From Escherichia coli (GTDB lineage Bacteria > Pseudomonadota > Gammaproteobacteria > Enterobacterales > Enterobacteriaceae), in NCBI RefSeq assembly GCF_024223415.1, contig NZ_CP100500.1: DNA of 64,000 bases; one strand, given 5' to 3'. The notes under the pieces were generated by a model. That model was not told where the DNA came from and did no database searches. It saw only the letters and a program-made list of their open reading frames with translations. Each line of letters begins with the position of its first letter. The first letter of the stretch is position 1. Shown here one piece after another: positions 1 to 9,689 of this stretch. The position numbers and the translations under genes are program-made.

Positions 1-72
1 GCGAAGCGCGTAACCGTTGCCCGTCCGGTTGTGTCGCTGTATTCGCCGCCCGTATCCGTCAGGGGGAAACCT

Positions 73-303
73 ATGCACAATAAAACAACACCGGACGCAG
101 CAGAAGAAGCAATGCAAATACTGATACGTGCGCTCGTTGATGTTACCCACATGGTGGAGATTATGGAGAGAAAATCACAGTCGGAGCACGACAAAAGAAA
201 ACTTAAAACAATAAAAATAATTGCCAAAAACTCGCTGATAAAAGTTACAGACATCCTTAATGAGGACATTAAAAGAATCAGGGAGAAAGTGTGTGATGCA
301 TAA
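73..303 (+). CDS. hypothetical small protein of satellite-like element (about 77 aa)
   Basis: ORF 31..303 in track; ATG at 73 preceded by AGGGGG RBS; no recognisable family. Confidence 0.35.
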   Translation: MHNKTTPDAAEEAMQILIRALVDVTHMVEIMERKSQSEHDKRKLKTIKIIAKNSLIKVTDILNEDIKRIREKVCDA

Positions 304-523
304 AATACCTTTTGATGTTCTTATTCATTCTGAAAACGCATTAATCCGTGCAAAGGAAATGGACGCATTACTACTTAAGTTAATTGATGTGCCGGAAAGT
401 GGCGATGAATCTGATTCAATAATGTTTTCTGCCGTGCGTACGCTATTAACGCATGTTATTAATGAATTAAATACAGTGATGGCAATTCACGAGAATAATA
501 AAGCGCAGCACACCGGAGAATAA
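296..523 (+). CDS. hypothetical small protein (about 75 aa)
   Basis: ORF in track; internal ATG at 296 (MHKIPF...) with GGGAGAAAG RBS, overlaps stop of upstream ORF; no recognisable family. Confidence 0.35.
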   Translation: MHKIPFDVLIHSENALIRAKEMDALLLKLIDVPESGDESDSIMFSAVRTLLTHVINELNTVMAIHENNKAQHTGE

Positions 524-528
524 AAACC

Positions 529-828
529 ATGAAAAATAAAAATTCTGGCGTTAATGCCAGCGGCCCCGCTCGGCCTGAATTTATGAACGGCGATATTTAC
601 CGCGACCAGTACGGCGGCACGGTAACGATTAAAGGCGTGGAGGAACGGCGCATCACTTACCGCCGTGAAGGCTACGAATATGATTGCGTGATGCCTGTTT
701 ATCAGTTCCGGCGTGATTTTTCTCTGGTACAGGCAGCGCCCCGCAGTAAACCAACCAGCAGGGAGAAAGCACGCGCCAATATTCAGGAAATAAAAAAGAT
801 GCTTAACGTATTCAGGGGTAAAAAATGA
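529..828 (+). CDS. hypothetical protein (99 aa)
   Basis: ORF in track, stop overlaps start of primase gene (operon-like coupling); no recognisable family. Confidence 0.4.
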   Translation: MKNKNSGVNASGPARPEFMNGDIYRDQYGGTVTIKGVEERRITYRREGYEYDCVMPVYQFRRDFSLVQAAPRSKPTSREKARANIQEIKKMLNVFRGKK

Positions 829-2573
829 AACTGGCACCGAACGTAAAAAAACAGCCGCGTGGAATAAAACACAAAGACACAGAGGTGATTATCTTTGCGG
901 GTAGTGATGCCTGGGCGCACGCGAAACAGTGGCAGGAACAGGACGGCCCCGCATCCGGCGATGATGTGCCGCCTGTGTGGCTCGGGCCAAATCAGCTTGC
1001 TGAACTGGATGCACTGAAAATTGTACCGGAGGGAAAAAAACGCGTAAGGCTGTACAGGGCCGGAGAACTGGATTTGGTGGAGACCAAAAAGATTGGTCAG
1101 AAGCTGGCGGCGGCAGATATTCAGGATGCGAATTTTTACTCTGAAGGAATGCACGGCCAGAAGGTGCAGAACTGGCGGCGCTATCTGAGTGCTGAGCGTG
1201 AAAATATTGCCGCAGGGCTTACCATGCCGGAACAGAAAAAAGCACAACTTTCACAGATGGCAGACAGTGAACGGGCACAGCTTCTTTCTTCCCGCTTTGA
1301 TGGTGTCTGCGTCCATGCAGAAAGTGAAATCGTTCACGTATGGCGCGGCGGGGTATGGTGTCCGGTCAGCACAATGGAACTTAGCCGCGAAATGGTGGCG
1401 ATCTATTCAGAGCACAGGGCCACTTTCAGCAAGCGCGTAATCAATAACGCCGTGGAAGCGTTAAAAGTTATTGCCGAACCAATGGGCGAGCCGTCCGGCG
1501 ATTTGCTGCCGTTCGCCAATGGTGCGCTTGACCTGAAAACGGGGGAATTTTCCCCGCACACGCCGGAGAACTGGATCACCACGCACAACGGCATTGAGTA
1601 CACGCCACCAGCACCAGGGGAGAATATCTGCGACAACGCGCCAAACTTTCATAAATGGCTTGAGCACGCAGCCGGAAAAGACCCGCGCAAGATGATGCGT
1701 ATATGTGCCGCGCTGTACATGATTATGGCGAACCGGTACGACTGGCAGATGTTTATTGAGGCCACCGGAGACGGCGGGAGCGGCAAAAGTACATTCACAC
1801 ACATAGCCAGCCTTCTGGCAGGGAAACAGAACACGGTAAGCGCTGAGATGACATCGCTTGATGATGCTGGTGGGCGTGCGCAGGTTGTCGGGAGTCGGCT
1901 TATTGTCCTGGCAGACCAGCCGAAATATACAGGCGAAGGAACGGGCATCAAGAAAATCACGGGCGGAGACCCCGTGGAAATAAACCCGAAATATGAGAAG
2001 CGTTTTACGGCGGTAATCAGGGCGGTGGTGCTGGCTACCAACAATAACCCGATGATATTCACCGAACGGGCCGGAGGTGTGTCACGTCGTCGCGTAATTT
2101 TCCGTTTCGACAATATCGTCAGTGAGGCTGAAAAAGACAGGGAGCTACCGGAAAAGATTGCGGCTGAAATCCCTGTCATTATCCGCCGCTTGCTGGCGAA
2201 CTTTGCCGACCCTGAAAAGGCACGGGCTTTACTCATTGAACAGCGAGACGGTGATGAAGCTCTGGCAATAAAGCAACAGACGGATCCGGTTATTGAGTTT
2301 TGCCAGTTTCTGAATTTTCTGGAGGAAGCGCGCGGCCTGATGATGGGCGGCGGCGGTGACTCTTCCAGGTACACGACCAGAAACAGCCTTTACCGCGTCT
2401 ATCTGGCGTTTATGGCGTATGCAGGCAGGAGCAAACCGCTAAACGTAAATGACTTTGGCAAGGCTATGAAGCCAGCGGCGAAAGTTTACGGACATGAATA
2501 TATAACGCGCAGGATTAAAGGGTTTACGCAAACCAACGTGACAACAACAGACGACTGCGACGCGTTTTTATAA
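825..2573 (+). CDS. phage/plasmid primase-helicase, P4/D5 family C-terminal domain with P-loop NTPase
   Basis: 582 aa ORF; Walker A motif GDGGSGKST followed by hydrophobic strand plus acidic Walker B-like LIVLADQ; architecture typical of satellite/PICI pri-rep proteins; iteron cluster immediately downstream. Confidence 0.75.
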   Translation: MKLAPNVKKQPRGIKHKDTEVIIFAGSDAWAHAKQWQEQDGPASGDDVPPVWLGPNQLAELDALKIVPEGKKRVRLYRAGELDLVETKKIGQKLAAADIQDANFYSEGMHGQKVQNWRRYLSAERENIAAGLTMPEQKKAQLSQMADSERAQLLSSRFDGVCVHAESEIVHVWRGGVWCPVSTMELSREMVAIYSEHRATFSKRVINNAVEALKVIAEPMGEPSGDLLPFANGALDLKTGEFSPHTPENWITTHNGIEYTPPAPGENICDNAPNFHKWLEHAAGKDPRKMMRICAALYMIMANRYDWQMFIEATGDGGSGKSTFTHIASLLAGKQNTVSAEMTSLDDAGGRAQVVGSRLIVLADQPKYTGEGTGIKKITGGDPVEINPKYEKRFTAVIRAVVLATNNNPMIFTERAGGVSRRRVIFRFDNIVSEAEKDRELPEKIAAEIPVIIRRLLANFADPEKARALLIEQRDGDEALAIKQQTDPVIEFCQFLNFLEEARGLMMGGGGDSSRYTTRNSLYRVYLAFMAYAGRSKPLNVNDFGKAMKPAAKVYGHEYITRRIKGFTQTNVTTTDDCDAFL

Positions 2574-2860
2574 TTTTTTGTAATTGCTGTCTACCCTGTC
2601 TACCTGAGTAAAGAAAAATACATTTAATTCAGTGCATTAAGTTAGGTAGATAGCCTTTTTTTACTGTCTACCCACTATCTACCCTCTCTACCTGATTTTA
2701 CCAGAATCAGACAGGGAGGTAGACACGGGGTAGATAGTGGATAAAAGCACTCTACCCCGCTGAAAGCCGCGCCATTACTGGCATGAGGGCCACTAAGGTA
2801 GGTAAGGTAGACAAGGGGAGGCACAACTCAAAACTTTTTAAACGAGGGGGTAAAAATAAA
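2574..2860. repeat. iteron cluster, putative replication origin (GTCTACC / GGTAGAC repeats)
   Basis: At least ten copies of 7-mer GTCTACC / GGTAGAC (and variants CTCTACC, GGTAGAT) in both orientations within about 290 bp, directly 3' of the primase gene. Confidence 0.6.
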
Positions 2861-2861
2861 A

Positions 2862-3119
2862 ATGCACACATCAGAAAAATTTAACAATCAGAAGAAATCA
2901 CATAACCGCGCCATTGACCTTACAGAGCACTGGCTGAGGGTGGCGATAAAAATCATCGACCGCAACGCGGGAGAAGGATACGCGAAAGCACATCCCGAAC
3001 TGATAAGCGCATTCATGACCACAGCGGCGGCAAACTTTGCCACGTTGACAGAACGGGAGATTGCCGAAGCGGAACAGGTGACAACCATCAATGTTAAAAC
3101 CGGAGAGCAGACAGCATGA
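2862..3119 (+). CDS. hypothetical protein (85 aa)
   Basis: ORF in track with GGGGG RBS upstream; stop overlaps next gene start. Confidence 0.4.
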   Translation: MHTSEKFNNQKKSHNRAIDLTEHWLRVAIKIIDRNAGEGYAKAHPELISAFMTTAAANFATLTEREIAEAEQVTTINVKTGEQTA

Positions 3120-3526
3120 CAGCACAGATAGCGGCTTACGGGCGGCTGGTGGACGACCCGCAGACAAAACAGACCAGCAAGGGAACACCGATGACGCTGG
3201 CACGTATGGCGGTATCGCTGCCATGCAGCCAGGCACAGGATGGACAGGCGACGTTATGGCTATCGGTCATCGCATTTGGTAAGCAGGCCGACTTCCTGGC
3301 TAAACATCAAAAAGGCGACGTTGCCAGCGTATCCGGCACGATGCAGGTCAGCCAGTGGACCGGACAGAACGGGGAAACGCGGCAGGGTTATCAGGTTATT
3401 GCAGACAGCGTAATCAGTGCCCGTGCGGCACGTCCTGGCGGGAACAGACGCAAAACCACAGGCACACAGGGTAATCAGCCACCAGCGGGAGGCGATGACC
3501 CTTACGGTGATGATATTCCGTTCTGA
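3116..3526 (+). CDS. single-stranded DNA-binding protein (SSB-like, OB fold with acidic DDIPF tail)
   Basis: 136 aa; N-terminal OB-fold-like region, Gly/Pro/Gln-rich linker and C-terminal ...DDPYGDDIPF characteristic of SSB tails. Confidence 0.6.
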   Translation: MTAQIAAYGRLVDDPQTKQTSKGTPMTLARMAVSLPCSQAQDGQATLWLSVIAFGKQADFLAKHQKGDVASVSGTMQVSQWTGQNGETRQGYQVIADSVISARAARPGGNRRKTTGTQGNQPPAGGDDPYGDDIPF

Positions 3527-3536
3527 GGGGGTGACG

Positions 3537-3809
3537 ATGGTACATGACCGGATAGCGGAGGAACTGGAGGCGAAAGGATTTTACCGGAGGGCGGCCGCGC
3601 GATGGGGTGAAGTTATGAGGCTGGTGAGCACTGACAAGGAGCGCGAACAGGTGGCAATGCGACGGCTGGAATGTTCACAGAAGGCACAGAGGCCACCGGA
3701 GCCGCCGGATGATTTAGGCGCTCTGAAAAGGTCAGTTAATCGCACTGAAAAACAAATGGGGATAGCTGGTATTGGCAAAGCAATATGGCGCAACTACCCG
3801 CAGAAGTGA
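3537..3809 (+). CDS. PerC-family-like transcriptional regulator (about 90 aa)
   Basis: Internal ATG at 3537 with GAGGGGG RBS; sequence MVHDRIAEELEAKGFYRRAAARWGEVM resembles N-terminal signature I recall for PerC/Pch-like activators; assignment from memory only. Confidence 0.45.
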   Translation: MVHDRIAEELEAKGFYRRAAARWGEVMRLVSTDKEREQVAMRRLECSQKAQRPPEPPDDLGALKRSVNRTEKQMGIAGIGKAIWRNYPQK

Positions 3810-3816
3810 GCACACA

Positions 3817-3839
3817 GCCGGAGCAATCCGGCTTTTTTG
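3817..3839 (+). terminator. rho-independent terminator
   Basis: GCCGGAGCAATCCGGC hairpin followed by TTTTTT. Confidence 0.6.
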
Positions 3840-3844
3840 CACCC

Positions 3845-3890
3845 AAAAAAAGCCCGATAAGTACAGGAGGCATCTTATCGGGCTTTTGCA
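3845..3890. terminator. second hairpin, possibly bidirectional terminator
   Basis: A-run, AGCCCGATAAG ... CTTATCGGGCT inverted repeat, then T-rich. Confidence 0.45.
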
Positions 3891-3966
3891 TATGAGGTTT
3901 TTTTTGGTGCACTGACACACATGATCGGGATAATCATTTCATAATTTGCAACGTAACTCAATATTG

Positions 3967-3994
3967 TTGCGCAAAATGCAATCATGATTATAAT
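3967..3994 (+). promoter_or_regulatory. sigma70-like promoter (-35 TTGCGC, 16 bp spacer, -10 TATAAT) upstream of capsid module
   Basis: Consensus -10 TATAAT at 3989-3994 with -35-like TTGCGC at 3967-3972; followed by perfect 8+2+8 palindrome CTGGATGAACATCCAG at about 4001-4016. Confidence 0.45.
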
Positions 3995-4050
3995 CAGGAC
4001 TGGATGAACATCCAGTTATGATTTTTTAAGTCAAAGAGGAATTTCTGACT

Positions 4051-4257
4051 ATGGCAGAAGAGAAAAAAGGCGGGGTGACGGTCTACATAAGCCCCGACAT
4101 CGTGGAGGCGCTCAAGGAACGCCACCAGCAGAATGTAAAAGCAGGCATTGCGGCAGGACTTGATCCGCTGGCGATGGTTGAGCCGTCAACAGGCTGGCAG
4201 GTGCGTACCTATTTACGTGCGGCGCTGGGTATCAATCAGGTTCACGGAGGTGAATAA
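4051..4257 (+). CDS. hypothetical small protein (68 aa), first gene of capsid module
   Basis: ORF in track with AAGAGGAA RBS; stop overlaps start of major capsid gene. Confidence 0.45.
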   Translation: MAEEKKGGVTVYISPDIVEALKERHQQNVKAGIAAGLDPLAMVEPSTGWQVRTYLRAALGINQVHGGE

Positions 4258-5312
4258 TGACAGGCAAAGCAACGGCACTTACAACTAACCAGCTTTTCGC
4301 GTACCTGAATCGCGGGGATATTTCGGAATTAAAATTCAGTCCGCTGTTTACCACGCTGTTTTTCCCGAACGTGGCGACCTTCAACACCCAAAACATCATG
4401 CTGGACACCCTGGACATTGAAGAGGTTACGATGTCAGCGTTCTGTTCGCCTATGGTGGGTAGTCAGGTCCAGCGCGATAAAGGGTACGAAACCAGCACAA
4501 TCAAACCTGGCTACATGAAGCCAAAGCACGAAATCGATCCAACAAAGACCATCATGCGCATGGCTGGAGAAGATCCGGCACAGCTTAACGACCCAACCTA
4601 TCGCCGTATGCGCCTGATTACTGGCAACATGCGCCGCCAGGTAAACGCCATTAAAGCGCGTGTTGAATGGCTGGCGGTGAATGCGGTAACGACCGGAAAA
4701 AACATCATTGAGGGCGAAGGCATAGAACGCTATGAAATCGACTGGAAAATACCGGAAAACTGCATCATACAGCAGGCCAGTGGTAAAAAATGGTCCCAGC
4801 AGGATAAAGACATGCACGACCCAATCTATGACATCGAGCTTTATGCTGATCAGGCAGGTTGCCCCGCCAACGTCATGATTATGGGCGGTGAGGTATGGCG
4901 CACATTACGCAGCTTTAAAAAATTCCGTGAACTGTACGATCTTTCCCGTGGATCAGAATCCGCCGCCGAGCTGGCCTGTAAAAACCTGGGCGAAGTGGTG
5001 AGCTTTAAAGGCTATCTTGGTGATCTGGCCCTTATCGTCTATTCCGGCAAATACACTGACAGCGACGGCACCGAAAAATATTTCCTTGAGCCTGATTTGC
5101 TGGTCCTGGGTAACACCAATAATAAAGGGCTGGTGGCATATGGTGCGATTATGGATCAGGAAGCGGTAAGAACGGGCGCAACGCAAAACATGTACTACCC
5201 GAAAAACTGGATTGAGGACGGCGATCCGGCGATTGAGTACGTGCAGACGCACAGCGCACCGCAGCCGGTACCGGCAGATATTCGCAAATTTGTTACCGTC
5301 AAAATTGCTTAA
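4257..5312 (+). CDS. major capsid protein, lambda gpE family
   Basis: 351 aa; segments FSPLFTTLFFPN and PGYMKPKHEIDP match lambda gpE (FDPLFLRLFFRES, PGYVKPKHEVNP) as I recall it; similar length (341 aa) and conserved C-terminal block. Confidence 0.8.
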   Translation: MTGKATALTTNQLFAYLNRGDISELKFSPLFTTLFFPNVATFNTQNIMLDTLDIEEVTMSAFCSPMVGSQVQRDKGYETSTIKPGYMKPKHEIDPTKTIMRMAGEDPAQLNDPTYRRMRLITGNMRRQVNAIKARVEWLAVNAVTTGKNIIEGEGIERYEIDWKIPENCIIQQASGKKWSQQDKDMHDPIYDIELYADQAGCPANVMIMGGEVWRTLRSFKKFRELYDLSRGSESAAELACKNLGEVVSFKGYLGDLALIVYSGKYTDSDGTEKYFLEPDLLVLGNTNNKGLVAYGAIMDQEAVRTGATQNMYYPKNWIEDGDPAIEYVQTHSAPQPVPADIRKFVTVKIA

Positions 5313-5323
5313 CGGGGGATTCT

Positions 5324-5659
5324 ATGGACGCTCCATATATTGAGTTATTTGCAGGCAGCCAGCAGGTATCCACGACGCTGGTACATTTTGCCGCTGATGC
5401 TGGCGTTATTCAGGAATTTACCCCGCTGATGCTGGCAGACAATGGCGAGTTTAAGGCGTGGGATGGTCAGGAATCTGGCAAAGCTGTTTATCTGACTTCG
5501 CACCCCGTGGACACGTCAAAGCAGAAATCAGCACAGTGTTACAAAACGGGGATATTCAATATTGCCGCCGTTAACTGGCCTGACAGCGTCGACACCGATG
5601 CGAAAAAATGCGCCGCCTTTGCGGGTTCCGGCGTATCCGTTCAGCCGCTGGCCCGATAA
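5324..5659 (+). CDS. head decoration protein, lambda gpD family
   Basis: 111 aa; TPLMLADNGEFKAWDG and YKTGIFN...AAFAGSGVSV match lambda gpD (TPLMLDTSSRKLVAWDG, YKSGTF...TAFAGTAISIV); same size as gpD. Confidence 0.7.
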   Translation: MDAPYIELFAGSQQVSTTLVHFAADAGVIQEFTPLMLADNGEFKAWDGQESGKAVYLTSHPVDTSKQKSAQCYKTGIFNIAAVNWPDSVDTDAKKCAAFAGSGVSVQPLAR

Positions 5660-5671
5660 GCAGGGGGAACG

Positions 5672-6085
5672 ATGGCAACGAATGAAAGTATCATGACGCT
5701 ACCGCTGGCGAGTAAATTTAAAGCCGAAGCGCGGGCAATGGCTGACAGAGGTTTATCAACCTACGAGGCCATACACCGACTAAACAAACTGGAAGAACAG
5801 GACAAGCCGCGCGCTGATGCGATTATGGCGCTTCATGAATCTGACGACTACCAGCCGCTGTTACGTGCAATGGCTAACGTGCCTTGTATCGATGTTGGTA
5901 CGGCTAAAAGCATCCTTAGCATGACCATAGAGCAGGAACGCCCGAAGGTTGCACCAGAGCTTACTTCAGCCTTTGAAAACTTTATGGACATGCACAGCCC
6001 GAAAGCCGTATCAGCTGGCATGGCATACGATGGCAGAACCCCGTGCGATGACGGCGACATCGACCGCATACTGAAAACCATCTGA
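5672..6085 (+). CDS. hypothetical protein (137 aa) of capsid/packaging module
   Basis: ORF in track with GGGGGA RBS; no family recognised. Confidence 0.45.
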   Translation: MATNESIMTLPLASKFKAEARAMADRGLSTYEAIHRLNKLEEQDKPRADAIMALHESDDYQPLLRAMANVPCIDVGTAKSILSMTIEQERPKVAPELTSAFENFMDMHSPKAVSAGMAYDGRTPCDDGDIDRILKTI

Positions 6086-6091
6086 GACAAG

Positions 6092-6115
6092 GCCGGAGAA
6101 ATCCGGCTTTTTTTG
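6092..6115 (+). terminator. rho-independent terminator
   Basis: GCCGGAGAAATCCGGC hairpin followed by TTTTTTT; same terminator module as at 3817. Confidence 0.6.
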
Positions 6116-6200
6116 CGGGTCCTTTCCGGCATGTGGACCCGTTACGGGGCGTCGACCTCGCACGTTTTCGCTATTTATGACGTTTTTCCGTGAAGGTGAC
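6110..6200 (+). other. lambda-type cos site 1 (cosQ-like, cosN GGGCGTCGACCT at 6147-6158, downstream segment)
   Basis: GGGTCCTTTCCGG...GTTACGGGGCGTCGACCTCGCACGTTTTCGCTATTTATGA closely matches the lambda cos region as I recall it (ACGGGTCCTTTCCGG...GTTACGGGGCGGCGACCTCGCGGGTTTTCGCTATTTATGAAAATTTTCCGG). Confidence 0.7.
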
Positions 6201-6247
6201 ACCACCACCACTTGATTAATATTTAACCATGTAGTTAAGGTAACATT

Positions 6248-6682
6248 ATGATTGATAAAGCTTGTTTTGTAAGTCAGCAGGAAATAGCTGAACATTTCAA
6301 TGTTAACAGAACCACTATTCGCGCATGGACCAAACAGGGGATGCCGTATCTTAATGCGGATCGCGGAAAGTCTGGCGGTTATCACATCGGGCATACATTG
6401 TTTTGGTATTCAGGTAAAAGCCATCTTCAGACCATCGGATATCACGTAGAAACCAGTGCGCTGGAAAAAATTATGTTTGCCAGGCTGCTTTCATCTGAGC
6501 GTGACGAGTACTCCAGTGAAGAAACAGAACATCGATTTGATGAAGGTTTGCAGATTTACGGCTATTCACCGGAAGATGTGAGCAAGGCACGAAATAAAAT
6601 GGCTGGCTTTCTGGCTGGGTGGCGTCATGCCGTAAGCGTTCGCCGTGCCAGCATGGAGCAATCAGCCGATACAGAACAGTAA
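6248..6682 (+). CDS. terminase small subunit, lambda Nu1-like (N-terminal winged HTH)
   Basis: 144 aa; QQEIAEHFNVNRTTIRAWTKQGMPYL...HTLFWYSGK aligns with lambda Nu1 KKQLADIFGASIRTIQNWQEQGMPVL...AVIKWYAER; about 90 bp downstream of cosN-like site as in lambda. Confidence 0.7.
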   Translation: MIDKACFVSQQEIAEHFNVNRTTIRAWTKQGMPYLNADRGKSGGYHIGHTLFWYSGKSHLQTIGYHVETSALEKIMFARLLSSERDEYSSEETEHRFDEGLQIYGYSPEDVSKARNKMAGFLAGWRHAVSVRRASMEQSADTEQ

Positions 6683-6729
6683 AGCCGATAACTTGTTAAT
6701 CACGCGCAGCAATGCGTGTGATTTTTGCA

Positions 6730-6850
6730 CACTTCCGGTTAACGGGTACGATGTCCGGTTTGTTTGTACATTTTTTGCACATGTCCGGTTCGCAGAAAGC
6801 ATGTTTTTATATTTTTCAGATAGTTAACTTGCAGAGAAACCGGACATGGA
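6730..6850. repeat. repeated TGTCCGGTT motifs (putative cosB-like terminase small-subunit binding sites)
   Basis: CACTTCCGGTT (6732), GATGTCCGGTT (6759), CATGTCCGGTT (6790) direct, and AACCGGACATG (6839) inverted. Confidence 0.5.
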
Positions 6851-6935
6851 TCCCGAAAAATTTTCATAAATAGTGAAAACGCGCGGGTTCGACGCCCCGT
6901 AACGGGCCATAATTCCAGAAGGACCCGACGACACC
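6830..6935 (-). other. lambda-type cos site 2, inverted relative to cos site 1
   Basis: Reverse complement reads GGGTCCTTCTGG...CCCGTTACGGGGCGTCGAACCCGCGCGTTTTCACTATTTATGAAAATTTTTCGGG, paralogous to site at 6110-6200 and to lambda cos. Confidence 0.65.
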
Positions 6936-6960
6936 AGACTATCAGAGCGATGGGGGCACA

Positions 6961-7242
6961 ATGACAGAAGCCGAACTACTGGGATTAATCCGCCGCGTTA
7001 CCGGAATCAGCCAGCAGCATGACGAACAGGCCACGCAGCCGGACAGCGTGACCGCCGAAAATTATGTGCGTGTTGTTGCGGAGGTGATGCGCCGTGACGG
7101 TATTGAGCTTAACGGCGTGGATATGCGCGACATACGGATCCGCGTTCTGGAAATGCTGGCATACCGTCGCCGCGTGCAGACGTACAGGGAAAAAGCAAAA
7201 ATAACGTACCACTGGAAGAAGCCGGAACGACTGCGTACGTAA
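6961..7242 (+). CDS. hypothetical protein (93 aa)
   Basis: ORF in track; weak RBS; last ORF of element before repeat-rich end. Confidence 0.3.
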   Translation: MTEAELLGLIRRVTGISQQHDEQATQPDSVTAENYVRVVAEVMRRDGIELNGVDMRDIRIRVLEMLAYRRRVQTYREKAKITYHWKKPERLRT

Positions 7243-7366
7243 TACGTACGGACATCGAGATAACGCAAAATTGCGCTGGCTACATCCCTCACATCTGAGG
7301 ACTGATAACAAGCTGCCTGAAAGACAGTCACAAACTACGAAATTTTCGCAGTTTAATTAATGGTCA

Positions 7367-7670
7367 GCTTAATCGCTAACCCGCTGATATTTTCGGAAAC
7401 ATCAATTTGAGGAAGTCGGCGCGGTAACTCGCTGAACTTAAAGCAAAGCGCAAAATTGCGCTGATTACTGGTTGGAATTGTTCCAGAGTGCAAATTTGCA
7501 CTCTGGCCTAACCCGTTGATTATTTCGAAAACCTGCAATGCAGGAAATCGGGGAAGTAAGCCTAAGCTATTGATTGTTTCGAAAACCACCATTGGGGGAT
7601 GTCGGGAAAGTAAGACTAACCCATTGATTCTTCCACAATCCTCAATGTGAGGAGGCCGGACATCGTGACA
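7367..7670. repeat. four imperfect direct repeats of about 54 bp (CTAACCCNTTGAT...GTAAG), three in tandem
   Basis: Units at about 7373-7427, 7507-7560, 7562-7615, 7616-7670 share CTAACCC(G/A)(C/T)TGAT ... TCGG..AAGTAAG and each contains a short internal inverted repeat. Confidence 0.6.
7483..7506. promoter_or_regulatory. 24-bp perfect palindrome CCAGAGTGCAAATTTGCACTCTGG
   Basis: Perfect dyad symmetry seen directly; nearby related inverted repeats GCGCAA-AA-TTGCGC at 7448-7461 and CGCAA-AA-TTGCG at 7264-7275. Confidence 0.5.
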
Positions 7671-7954
7671 GAGCGTGACAACCAGGTAACTAATCTCGCT
7701 GGTGGGCGTGATGTCGATATGGTGATCCCCATAACGGGTTATCCGTGATCATCCACCAGCTTCATGGCAGATAGCCGGAAAATGATAACGGTTAAGCAAA
7801 ACTGCCAGCAAATTTCCCTTTTGTTTGTTATTGTTCGTCGTTGTTCGTAGAGCTTCAACAAAATGTGTGGTCAGTTGTGTGGTCAGTTTTGAGGTTTTTA
7901 ATTCTTATGTGCTGAAAAACTTATTAATTATCAACTGATAACAAAAATTAGTAA

Positions 7955-8048
7955 GAAATACCCGTATCACCTGATCTGGATAATGCCAGCGTAGGGAAGT
8001 CACGGACCACCAGGTCATTGCTTCTTCACGTTATGGCAGGAGCAAACT
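7955..8048 (+). promoter_or_regulatory. 3' portion of thiM TPP riboswitch (thi-box) and expression platform; 5' half of aptamer absent
   Basis: GAAATACCCGTATCACCTGATCTGGATAATGCCAGCGTAGGGAAGT matches the well-studied E. coli thiM aptamer 3' half from memory; expected upstream GGGGTGCCCTTCTGCGTGAAGGCTGA is replaced by AT-rich unrelated sequence. Confidence 0.6.
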
Positions 8049-8837
8049 ATGCAAGTCGACCTGCTGGGTTCAGCGCAATCTGCGCACGCGTTACACCTTT
8101 TTCACCAACATTCCCCTCTTGTGCACTGCATGACCAATGATGTGGTGCAAACCTTTACCGCCAATACCTTGCTGGCGCTCGGTGCATCGCCAGCGATGGT
8201 TATCGAAACCGAAGAGGCCAGTCAGTTTGCGGCTATCGCCAGTGCCTTGTTGATTAACGTTGGCACACTGACGCAGCCACGCGCTCAGGCGATGCGTGCT
8301 GCCGTTGAGCAAGCAAAAAGCTCTCAAACACCCTGGACGCTTGATCCAGTAGCGGTGGGTGCGCTCGATTATCGCCGCCATTTTTGTCATGAACTTTTAT
8401 CTTTTAAACCGGCAGCGATACGTGGTAATGCTTCGGAAATCATGGCATTAGCTGGCATTGCTAATGGCGGACGGGGAGTGGATACCACTGACGCCGCAGC
8501 TAACGCGATACCCGCTGCACAAACACTGGCACGGGAAACTGGCGCAATCGTCGTGGTCACTGGCGAGATGGATTATGTTACCGATGGACATCGTATCATT
8601 GGTATTCACGGTGGTGATCCGTTAATGACCAAAGTGGTAGGAACTGGCTGTGCATTATCGGCGGTTGTCGCTGCCTGCTGTGCGTTACCAGGCGATACGC
8701 TGGAAAATGTCGCATCTGCCTGTCACTGGATGAAACAAGCCGGAGAACGCGCAGTCGCCAGAAGCGAGGGGCCAGGCAGTTTTGTTCCACATTTCCTTGA
8801 TGCGCTCTGGCAATTGACGCAGGAGGTGCAGGCATGA
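8049..8837 (+). CDS. thiM: hydroxyethylthiazole kinase
   Basis: 262 aa ORF, recognised ThiM sequence; overlaps thiD start. Confidence 0.95.
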
Positions 8838-9634
8838 AACGAATTAACGCTCTGACGATTGCCGGTACTGATCCGAGTGGTGGTGCGGGGATTCAGGCCG
8901 ATCTTAAAACCTTCTCGGCACTTGGCGCTTATGGTTGCTCAGTTATTACTGCACTGGTGGCGCAAAATACCCGTGGCGTACAGTCGGTGTATCGCATTGA
9001 GCCTGATTTTGTCGCCGCCCAGCTCGATTCGGTGTTCAGCGATGTGCGAATCGATACCACTAAAATCGGTATGCTGGCGGAAACCGATATTGTTGAAGCG
9101 GTGGCAGAACGGTTGCAACGTTATCAGATCCAAAACGTGGTACTCGACACCGTTATGCTGGCAAAAAGCGGCGACCCGCTGCTTTCACCTTCGGCGGTTG
9201 CTACGCTGCGCAGTCGATTATTGCCACAGGTTTCATTAATAACGCCAAACTTGCCCGAAGCTGCCGCCTTGCTCGACGCGCCACACGCGCGCACCGAACA
9301 GGAAATGCTGGAACAAGGGCGATCGCTGTTGGCGATGGGCTGTGGCGCAGTGCTAATGAAAGGTGGTCATCTGGATGATGAGCAAAGCCCGGACTGGCTG
9401 TTTACCCGCGAGGGTGAACAACGGTTTACCGCACCGCGCATTATGACCAAAAACACCCACGGCACTGGTTGTACACTCTCTGCGGCGTTGGCTGCACTAC
9501 GCCCGCGCCATACAAACTGGGCTGACACCGTACAGGAGGCAAAAAGCTGGCTTTCATCGGCGTTAGCCCAGGCCGACACGCTGGAAGTTGGTCACGGTAT
9601 TGGTCCGGTTCACCACTTCCACGCCTGGTGGTGA
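8834..9634 (+). CDS. thiD: hydroxymethylpyrimidine / phosphomethylpyrimidine kinase
   Basis: 266 aa ORF, recognised ThiD. Confidence 0.95.
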
Positions 9635-9689
9635 GCACCGTACTATAGCTGCTTTGGTTATTGTCAGCCTTTGGCACTGACATTCAGGG

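Follow-up and report, generated by a model that had tools for sequence, protein, structure and literature searches.

A 64,000-nucleotide stretch of Escherichia coli DNA (the window) carries, at 3537–3809, a small gene, here called perC, that lies between the replication genes and the capsid genes of a satellite. The question raised by this locus is whether the product of the gene serves the satellite, by switching on the late genes that follow it, or acts mainly on genes of the host. The initial annotation had likened the 90-aa product to PerC/Pch-type activators on the basis of an N-terminal motif, and had suggested from its position that it could activate the late genes of the satellite.

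A pchE-like gene of the PerC family

The gene and its candidate ribosome-binding site are as follows.

3537–3809, + strand: pchE-like perC gene encoding a 90-aa protein of the PerC family (PF06069), assigned from the open reading frame, the Pfam match, the identity to PchE and dN/dS
3525–3531, + strand: Shine–Dalgarno-like GAGGGGG, read from the sequence, 5 nt 5′ of the perC ATG and overlapping the ssb stop codon

The frame is intact, running for 90 codons from an ATG at 3537 to a stop codon that ends at 3809, and the product begins with MVHDRIAEELEAKGFYRRAAARW. This ATG lies 10 nt downstream of the stop codon of ssb (3524–3526). A longer alternative frame from a GTG at 3417 appears in the list of open reading frames, but all homologues begin with MVHD or MIxD and we therefore place the start at 3537.

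The initial annotation had named a profile search as the check on its family assignment, with the lack of a PerC match as the outcome that would count against it. The search found PerC: residues 1–89 align to positions 1–89 of the 90-position PF06069 profile (E = 1.1e-38, 131.8 bits; cut-off 22.6), and the product also matches the PHROG family phrog_994 (E = 1.6e-41). PerC was the sole Pfam match of the product, with no homology to Ogr/Delta zinc fingers or to Q. Identity of the protein is 75% to PchE, 73% to the CFT073 protein and 51% to EcCIMP1_025. In an alignment of 59 diverse representatives of the family, the columns that are invariant or at least 90% conserved correspond to D4, A7, L10, E11, G14, R17, R18, A19, R22, W23, C46, M74 and G75, all of which the window protein has; it contains a single cysteine. 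Conservation in the family is highest in the N-terminal motif AEELEAKGFYRRAAARW. The proposed PerC/Pch resemblance thus extends from one end of the protein to the other, and the motif on which it was based is the best-conserved part of the family.

With 90 aa and a position inside an EcCICFT073-like phage-inducible chromosomal island (PICI), the product has the size (~80–100 aa) and the setting of a small mobile-element protein. A six-frame HMM scan of the 64-kb window found no second PerC-family open reading frame. The family as a whole is small, with 264 clusters at 50% identity among 1.8 billion representative proteins.

perC lies in an EcCICFT073-type PICI

The features of the island around perC are given below.

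1–7967, + strand: part inside the window of an EcCICFT073-like PICI, with int and alpA beyond the left edge and the attR core AGAAATACCCGTAT at 7954–7967
825–2573: P4/D5-type primase (domains D5_N, DUF5906 and Pox_D5, plus TIGR01613)
2581–2820: iteron-rich replication origin, with many CTGTCTACC/GGTAGACA iterons in both orientations
2862–3119: 85-aa open reading frame, with ssb forming the end of the replication module
3116–3526, + strand: ssb (Pfam SSB, E = 7e-17), directly 5′ of perC
4051–6682, + strand: late module, with 93–95% amino-acid identity to the CFT073 genes
4051–4257, + strand: 68-aa open reading frame, first of the late module
4257–5312, + strand: lambda-E-type major capsid protein (Pfam Phage_cap_E, E = 1e-50)
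5324–5659, + strand: lambda-D-type decoration protein (Pfam HDPD, E = 2e-17)
5672–6085, + strand: 137-aa open reading frame of the late module
6248–6682, + strand: RppA homologue, 95% identical to the CFT073 protein

The window from position 1 to ~7967 holds the right-hand two thirds of a Gram-negative PICI that shares 91.6% nucleotide identity over 498–7226 with the CFT073 PICI, EcCICFT073, which is the class prototype. The int and alpA genes are present in relatives at 91–94% identity. Judged from its primase, iteron origin and Rpp (redirecting phage packaging) homologue, the element is an EcCICFT073-type PICI. The satellite context assumed in the initial annotation is therefore sound, as is the location that it gave to perC, between the replication genes (primase, origin and ssb) and the capsid module. 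CFT073, Sakai Sp7 and the cf-PICI loci all keep the order ssb then perC. In EcCICFT073 the capsid and decoration genes are known as c1499 and c1500 (PMC6092414) and RppA as c1503 (PMC6739421), names that we assigned to the CFT073 genes by function and position.

Several features of the neighbouring sequence are recorded here in their own right. The origin region is long and imperfectly palindromic, and gives rise to spurious Rfam microRNA matches on both strands at 2655–2747. The 68-aa open reading frame, which is found only in enterobacterial elements, overlaps the start of the capsid gene (ATGA). It has no Pfam domain, and its AlphaFold2 model (strand-helix-helix, pLDDT 78), in which a resemblance to a ribbon-helix-helix protein may be seen, gave no significant match in a Foldseek search of the PDB. 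We considered for this protein a possible role as an autoregulator at the inverted repeat of 3998–4017. The N-terminus of the RppA homologue has weak HTH/BldC-type matches. The 137-aa open reading frame matches phrog_1999. In addition, its residues 47–118 align (E = 1e-7) with the C-terminal end of phrog_53, a family of head maturation proteases; we take this part to correspond to the lambda C/Nu3 scaffold region. If this scaffold reading is true, the island encodes homologues of the lambda capsid and decoration proteins and possibly of the scaffold.

The PICI is integrated inside the aptamer of the thiM TPP riboswitch (window 7880–8048). We defined the att core by setting an empty site (L210) beside the attL and attR of a cf-PICI integrated at that site (L006); it is a 14-bp sequence, AGAAATACCCGTAT, at 7954–7967 of the window and is common to both ends of that cf-PICI. 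At the empty site the riboswitch measures 97 nt, of which the window matches all but the first 36, such that only the 3′ 61 nt are left at thiM in the window. Here the Rfam TPP model scores 36 bits against a gathering score of 54, the 5′ helices having been replaced by island sequence. Insertion in the aptamer therefore separates thiMD from its promoter and from the first 36 nt of the riboswitch. Homology to relatives at other chromosomal sites stops near 7463, and the island runs on to the att core at 7954; the ~490 bp in between (7464–7953) are common to islands at the thiM site. Two copies of a direct repeat, GTGTGGTCAGTT (~7865–7888), may be integrase arm-type binding sites.

Terminators and the late promoter region

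Between perC and the late module we found four further elements.

3816–3839, + strand: intrinsic terminator 1, AGCCGGAGCAATCCGGC followed by a T run, from the terminator scan; 3′ boundary of the perC cassette
3843–3893, no strand assigned: terminator 2, bidirectional-looking, a perfect 14-bp inverted repeat (3848–3861/3874–3887) with an A run on one side and a T run on the other
3967–3994, + strand: putative capsid-module promoter, TTGCGC, 16-nt spacer, TATAAT, read from the sequence
3998–4017, + strand: inverted repeat or 5′ hairpin, GACTGGAT GAAC ATCCAGTT, then a T-rich run; terminator-like in the scan

The ssb stop codon bounds the perC cassette on the left and terminator 1 on the right. 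Terminator 1 has the form AGCCGGAG(C/A)AATCCGGCTTTTT, and in relatives without PerC it stands within ~10–20 nt 3′ of the ssb stop codon. The terminator AGCCGGAG(A/C)AATCCGGCTTTTT occurs twice in Sakai Sp7 (L154), at 8050–8075 and 8404–8428, closing first pchE and then a 74-aa open reading frame. Recombination between repeated copies of the terminator could explain the clean gain and loss of perC. The arms of terminator 2 are 100% complementary and the element is kept in 55 of 56 distinct upstream variants, with or without PerC, the one other variant having a deletion in the 5′ arm.

A promoter scan of the + strand from 2500 to 4400 returned no sigma-70-like site, from which we infer that ssb and perC are co-transcribed. 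A promoter of its own for perC, within the 3′ end of ssb, was considered and rejected on the same empty scan. The putative capsid-module promoter has a perfect −10 element and a weak −35 element, the latter below the −35 threshold of the scan, and sits in a 34% GC trough. Between its −10 element and the ribosome-binding site of the 68-aa open reading frame lies the repeat at 3998–4017, a perfect 8-bp inverted repeat (AACTGGAT GAAC ATCCAGTT) that is kept in essentially all 56 upstream variants, PerC+ and PerC− alike. The few changes in it among these variants are one-sided, without compensatory changes; possible roles are those of operator, 5′ mRNA hairpin and attenuator.

We also considered control of the late promoter by a helper through mimicry of lambdoid pR′/qut/tR′ signals. 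This is unsupported, because none of 50,697 phage records resembled the sequence at 3810–4060. AlpA was considered as a late activator too; the regions upstream of CFT073 alpA and Icd, which were read for a shared motif, gave no convincing match to the TTGCA-type repeats at 3940–3985.

perC is an optional cassette

We gathered 80 IMG/VR loci with the capsid protein as the anchor, so that the sample is unbiased by PerC; 76 of them include the upstream anchor gene. By HMM scan, 45 of the 76 loci have a PerC-family open reading frame between ssb and the late module, and the other 31 have none there. Counted as distinct ssb-to-late-module intervals, 36 are PerC+ and 25 are PerC−. A PerC gene elsewhere in the locus is present in only 2 of the 31 slot-negative loci. 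In STEC434, a complete relative, perC is precisely absent: terminator 1 lies within ~10 nt of the ssb stop codon, the downstream promoter region is conserved, and no PerC-family open reading frame was found in the element or in 5 kb on each side. The ~150 bp 5′ of the late module, which include the −35 and −10 elements, the inverted repeat and the ribosome-binding site, are nearly invariant among the 56 distinct variants and are the same in PerC+ and PerC− elements.

Two loci with an empty slot, L110 and L111, carry a PerC-family gene (48% identity) at their far right end (~9240–9640), after a 93-aa open reading frame; the position recalls that of the PerC-like gene of EcCIMP1 (9535–9816 of L209).

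PerC alleles and late modules have been reassorted. The nearest late-module relatives of the window, L088 and L090, have a capsid protein that is 99% identical, and yet the PerC protein encoded in their slot is only 48% identical. It is followed by a gene of ~260 codons that is ProQ/FinO-like, as judged by eye and by pairing with the RefSeq annotation. By sequence identity, the slot between ssb and the late module is shared by at least two PerC lineages, diverged to 48% identity. Conversely, an allele type with 76% identity precedes both lambda-E-type and HK97-type modules, whose upstream regions are unrelated. The order ssb, PerC, small open reading frame, capsid module recurs in cf-PICIs that combine a DUF927 primase with an HK97-type capsid module, and 36 of 39 HK97-type cf-PICI loci from IMG/VR have PerC, although these loci are nearly clonal. 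The slot is thus kept in PICIs with unrelated capsid modules (lambda-E and HK97) and unrelated primases, which hints at a role in satellite biology beyond that of an accessory gene.

The family extends to other mobile elements. PerC homologues occur on 385 plasmid records, in unrelated contexts, and EcCIMP1, a PICI without capsid genes, has one at its distal end. In bona fide phage genomes there was a single PerC-family match in 50,697 records (E ≤ 1e-5). Taken from these genome comparisons, our conclusion is that the PICI replication operon carries perC at its 3′ end as an optional cassette. Its presence/absence polymorphism offers natural near-isogenic pairs for asking what PchE-type proteins do in a satellite.

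The predicted fold resembles protein-interaction domains

The AlphaFold2 model of the window protein family, built from 59 diverse members, is confident (pLDDT 87) and has five helices, and its first ~50 residues superpose on TPR repeats. With the PerC model, a Foldseek search of the PDB gave nothing significant; the nearest structural neighbours are domains for protein interaction (TPR), and no DNA-binding fold was recognised. The NCBIfam profile of the ANR (AraC negative regulator) family (NF033650) aligns to residues 7–52 over nearly the whole of its 54 positions (E = 0.0077), at 16.1 bits against a curated cut-off of 32, which places the window protein outside the family. Short members of the PerC family gave similar alignments over nearly the full profile, with 7 of 10 matching at E values of 2e-6 to 5e-3 (16–27 bits). 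The profile matches point to a remote relation between PerC and ANR proteins, without membership. Neither the island sequence within the window (Pfam, ten open reading frames) nor the fully annotated CFT073 relative yielded an AraC-family gene.

Late activator or host regulator

The idea that PerC activates the capsid-module promoter, put forward in the initial annotation, finds no support in the comparison of islands. The same late module stands without a slot PerC in 31 of the 76 loci, and without any PerC in STEC434; the ~150-bp upstream region is alike in PerC+ and PerC− elements; and PerC alleles and late modules reassort. Obligatory co-occurrence with the late operon that it controls, the mark of a dedicated late activator such as P2 Ogr, P4 Delta or lambda Q, is not seen for perC. 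Taken together, the comparisons speak against PerC as an activator that the capsid promoter requires and that recognises a specific sequence.

Stated in full, the idea would make PerC an early-to-late coupling factor of the satellite, the final product of the replication operon, which would switch on the AT-rich capsid/packaging promoter next to it, most plausibly through relief of H-NS silencing and not through sequence-specific activation. Among the genes, perC comes last before the late promoter, much as Q does before pR′ in lambda, and it keeps this slot in PICIs with unrelated late modules. A late promoter with a weak −35 element in a 34% GC trough is, moreover, the kind of DNA that H-NS silences, group 1 Pch proteins are H-NS anti-silencers (PMC4764244), and the PICI literature that we covered gives no account of what activates the late operon. 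However, the loci that have the same late module and promoter and no slot PerC, the promoter region shared by PerC+ and PerC− elements, and the free reassortment of alleles and modules all speak against coupling, as do the homologues on plasmids and in a capsid-less PICI. In addition, the capsid and decoration genes 3′ of the promoter are dispensable for transfer of EcCICFT073 (PMC6092414). We consider a coupling function rather unlikely.

In a related proposal, PchE-type PerC proteins would belong primarily to the satellite and would not be virulence regulators in the first place; they would be optional H-NS anti-silencers that are made from a helper-induced early operon and open the AT-rich late promoter. 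This would explain why two PerC lineages are found in one slot before unrelated capsid modules. If it were true, anti-silencing would have evolved for the spread of satellites, and what Pch proteins do to LEE, curli and flagella would be a by-product of it. We nevertheless judge it to be improbable.

Satellites often encode small proteins aimed at regulators of the helper, and perC lies in the induced part of the island. PerC might therefore act on the expression of the helper phage, either aiding induction of the satellite or interfering with the phage. EcCIMP1, which has a PerC-like gene, affects helper biology (PMC11773190), an effect that has not been assigned to that gene. However, when the post-ori genes of EcCICFT073 were expressed singly, only c1503 (RppA) cut plaquing by lambda (PMC6739421), in a clone set from which the perC homologue was perhaps absent. 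perC is also optional among near-identical islands, and phage genomes are nearly without the family (the single match given above). An action on the helper is accordingly quite improbable.

The dN/dS of perC against its homologues is 0.23–0.48 over the full length and 0.15–0.34 over residues 1–57, which indicates purifying selection, strongest in the N-terminal domain. It is therefore highly improbable that perC is a decaying or functionless passenger, even though the gene is often absent and the CFT073 allele encodes only 82 aa and diverges at the C-terminus, given also its intact frame, its fully conserved family motifs and its homologues, at 60–98% nucleotide identity, in 878 of 5,426 complete E. 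coli genomes.

The reading that we prefer, with a probability of roughly 0.6, is that perC is a PchE-type (group 3) PerC gene, carried as an optional PICI cassette, whose product acts as an accessory regulator of host genes. The gene would be transcribed together with ssb from upstream PICI promoters. Its product would act in trans through protein–protein contacts, not through sequence-specific DNA binding, and the partners would be nucleoid-associated silencers or activators. The all-helical, TPR-like model, the remote ANR match and the published action of Pch on H-NS together suggest such a protein-contact mechanism, which would explain how different alleles can activate, repress or ignore the same promoter. 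The precedents are group 1 Pch, which displaces H-NS from the LEE1 promoter, and the ANR proteins, which bind AraC-type activators and H-NS; as an account of PchE-type proteins, a mechanism with H-NS or AraC-type partners would be an extrapolation from these two groups. The main effect of PerC would be to re-program host genes or other horizontally acquired genes, and perC would be an accessory regulator of the lysogenic-conversion type, with no required step in the life cycle of the satellite. That PerC homologues on mobile elements cross-regulate host genes, as the initial annotation also stated, agrees with the literature (PMC4764244, PMC6265319, PMC11773190).

The gene type is already known, being annotated in RefSeq and published as PchE or PICI-encoded PerC, and the present finding adds little beyond one more allele of it, in an element whose type has likewise been published. 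perC is of use as an annotation marker of EcCICFT073-type PICIs, and is a candidate helper-mobilisable modifier of host surface and virulence expression (curli, flagella and LEE).

Comparison with known PerC, Pch and ANR proteins

The closest characterized relative is PchE of E. coli O157:H7 Sakai (ECs_1588, annotated as pchE/PchE). The two proteins, both of 90 aa and both of the group 3 type, are identical at 67 of 89 residues (75%) without gaps, and the quarter of residues at which PchE differs fall mostly in the C-terminal third. The genes occupy the same slot, directly 3′ of ssb and 5′ of the PICI capsid module; the position of pchE next to ssb on OI-51 has been reported (PMC3378721). The Sakai slot belongs to the prophage-like element Sp7, equivalent to OI-51/CP-933C and to EcCIEDL933, the prototype capsid-forming PICI. 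The islands themselves differ: that of the window has a lambda-E/D-type capsid module with Rpp and is at thiM, whereas that of PchE has an HK97-type capsid-forming module and lies between roxA and phoQ. The O157 allele of PchE is reported to repress csgD and curli with little effect on LEE (PMC6265319) and to down-regulate flagella (PMC7369912). After SOS-inducing treatment the pchE mRNA reportedly fell rather than rose (PMC6265319), which is not easily reconciled with simple co-transcription within an operon induced by the helper.

The homologue in EcCICFT073 (WP_000233305.1, C_RS07000), which RefSeq names 'PerC family transcriptional regulator', shares both the type of island and the slot. 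Its protein is 73% identical to that of the window but has 82 aa, with a different C-terminal end, in place of 90. Regulators of the PerC family are common in Gram-negative PICIs according to a 2025 study (PMC11773190), and some E. coli PICIs had earlier been reported to encode PerC variants (PMC6092414).

EPEC PerC and EHEC PchA, PchB and PchC (group 1) belong to the same Pfam family as the window protein, have the same N-terminal motif and are likewise borne on mobile elements. Group 1 Pch activates LEE1 (ler) only by displacing the H-NS/StpA/Hha complex (PMC4764244); group 3 proteins, unlike those of group 1, do not activate LEE (PMC6265319). The outcome at LEE1 accordingly varies with the allele, PerC being an activator and EcCIMP1_025 a repressor, and PchE and the CFT073 protein being without effect (PMC11773190, PMC6265319). 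The lack of effect of the EcCICFT073 and EcCIEDL933 proteins concerns LEE1 fusions and is given here as PMC11773190 cites it from Porter 2005. For EcCIMP1_025, ANR-like behaviour has been suggested (PMC11773190).

Members of the ANR family such as Aar (NF033650) are small helical proteins, as is the window protein. The window protein differs from them in an extra C-terminal region of ~35 residues, which has a conserved MG motif of its own.
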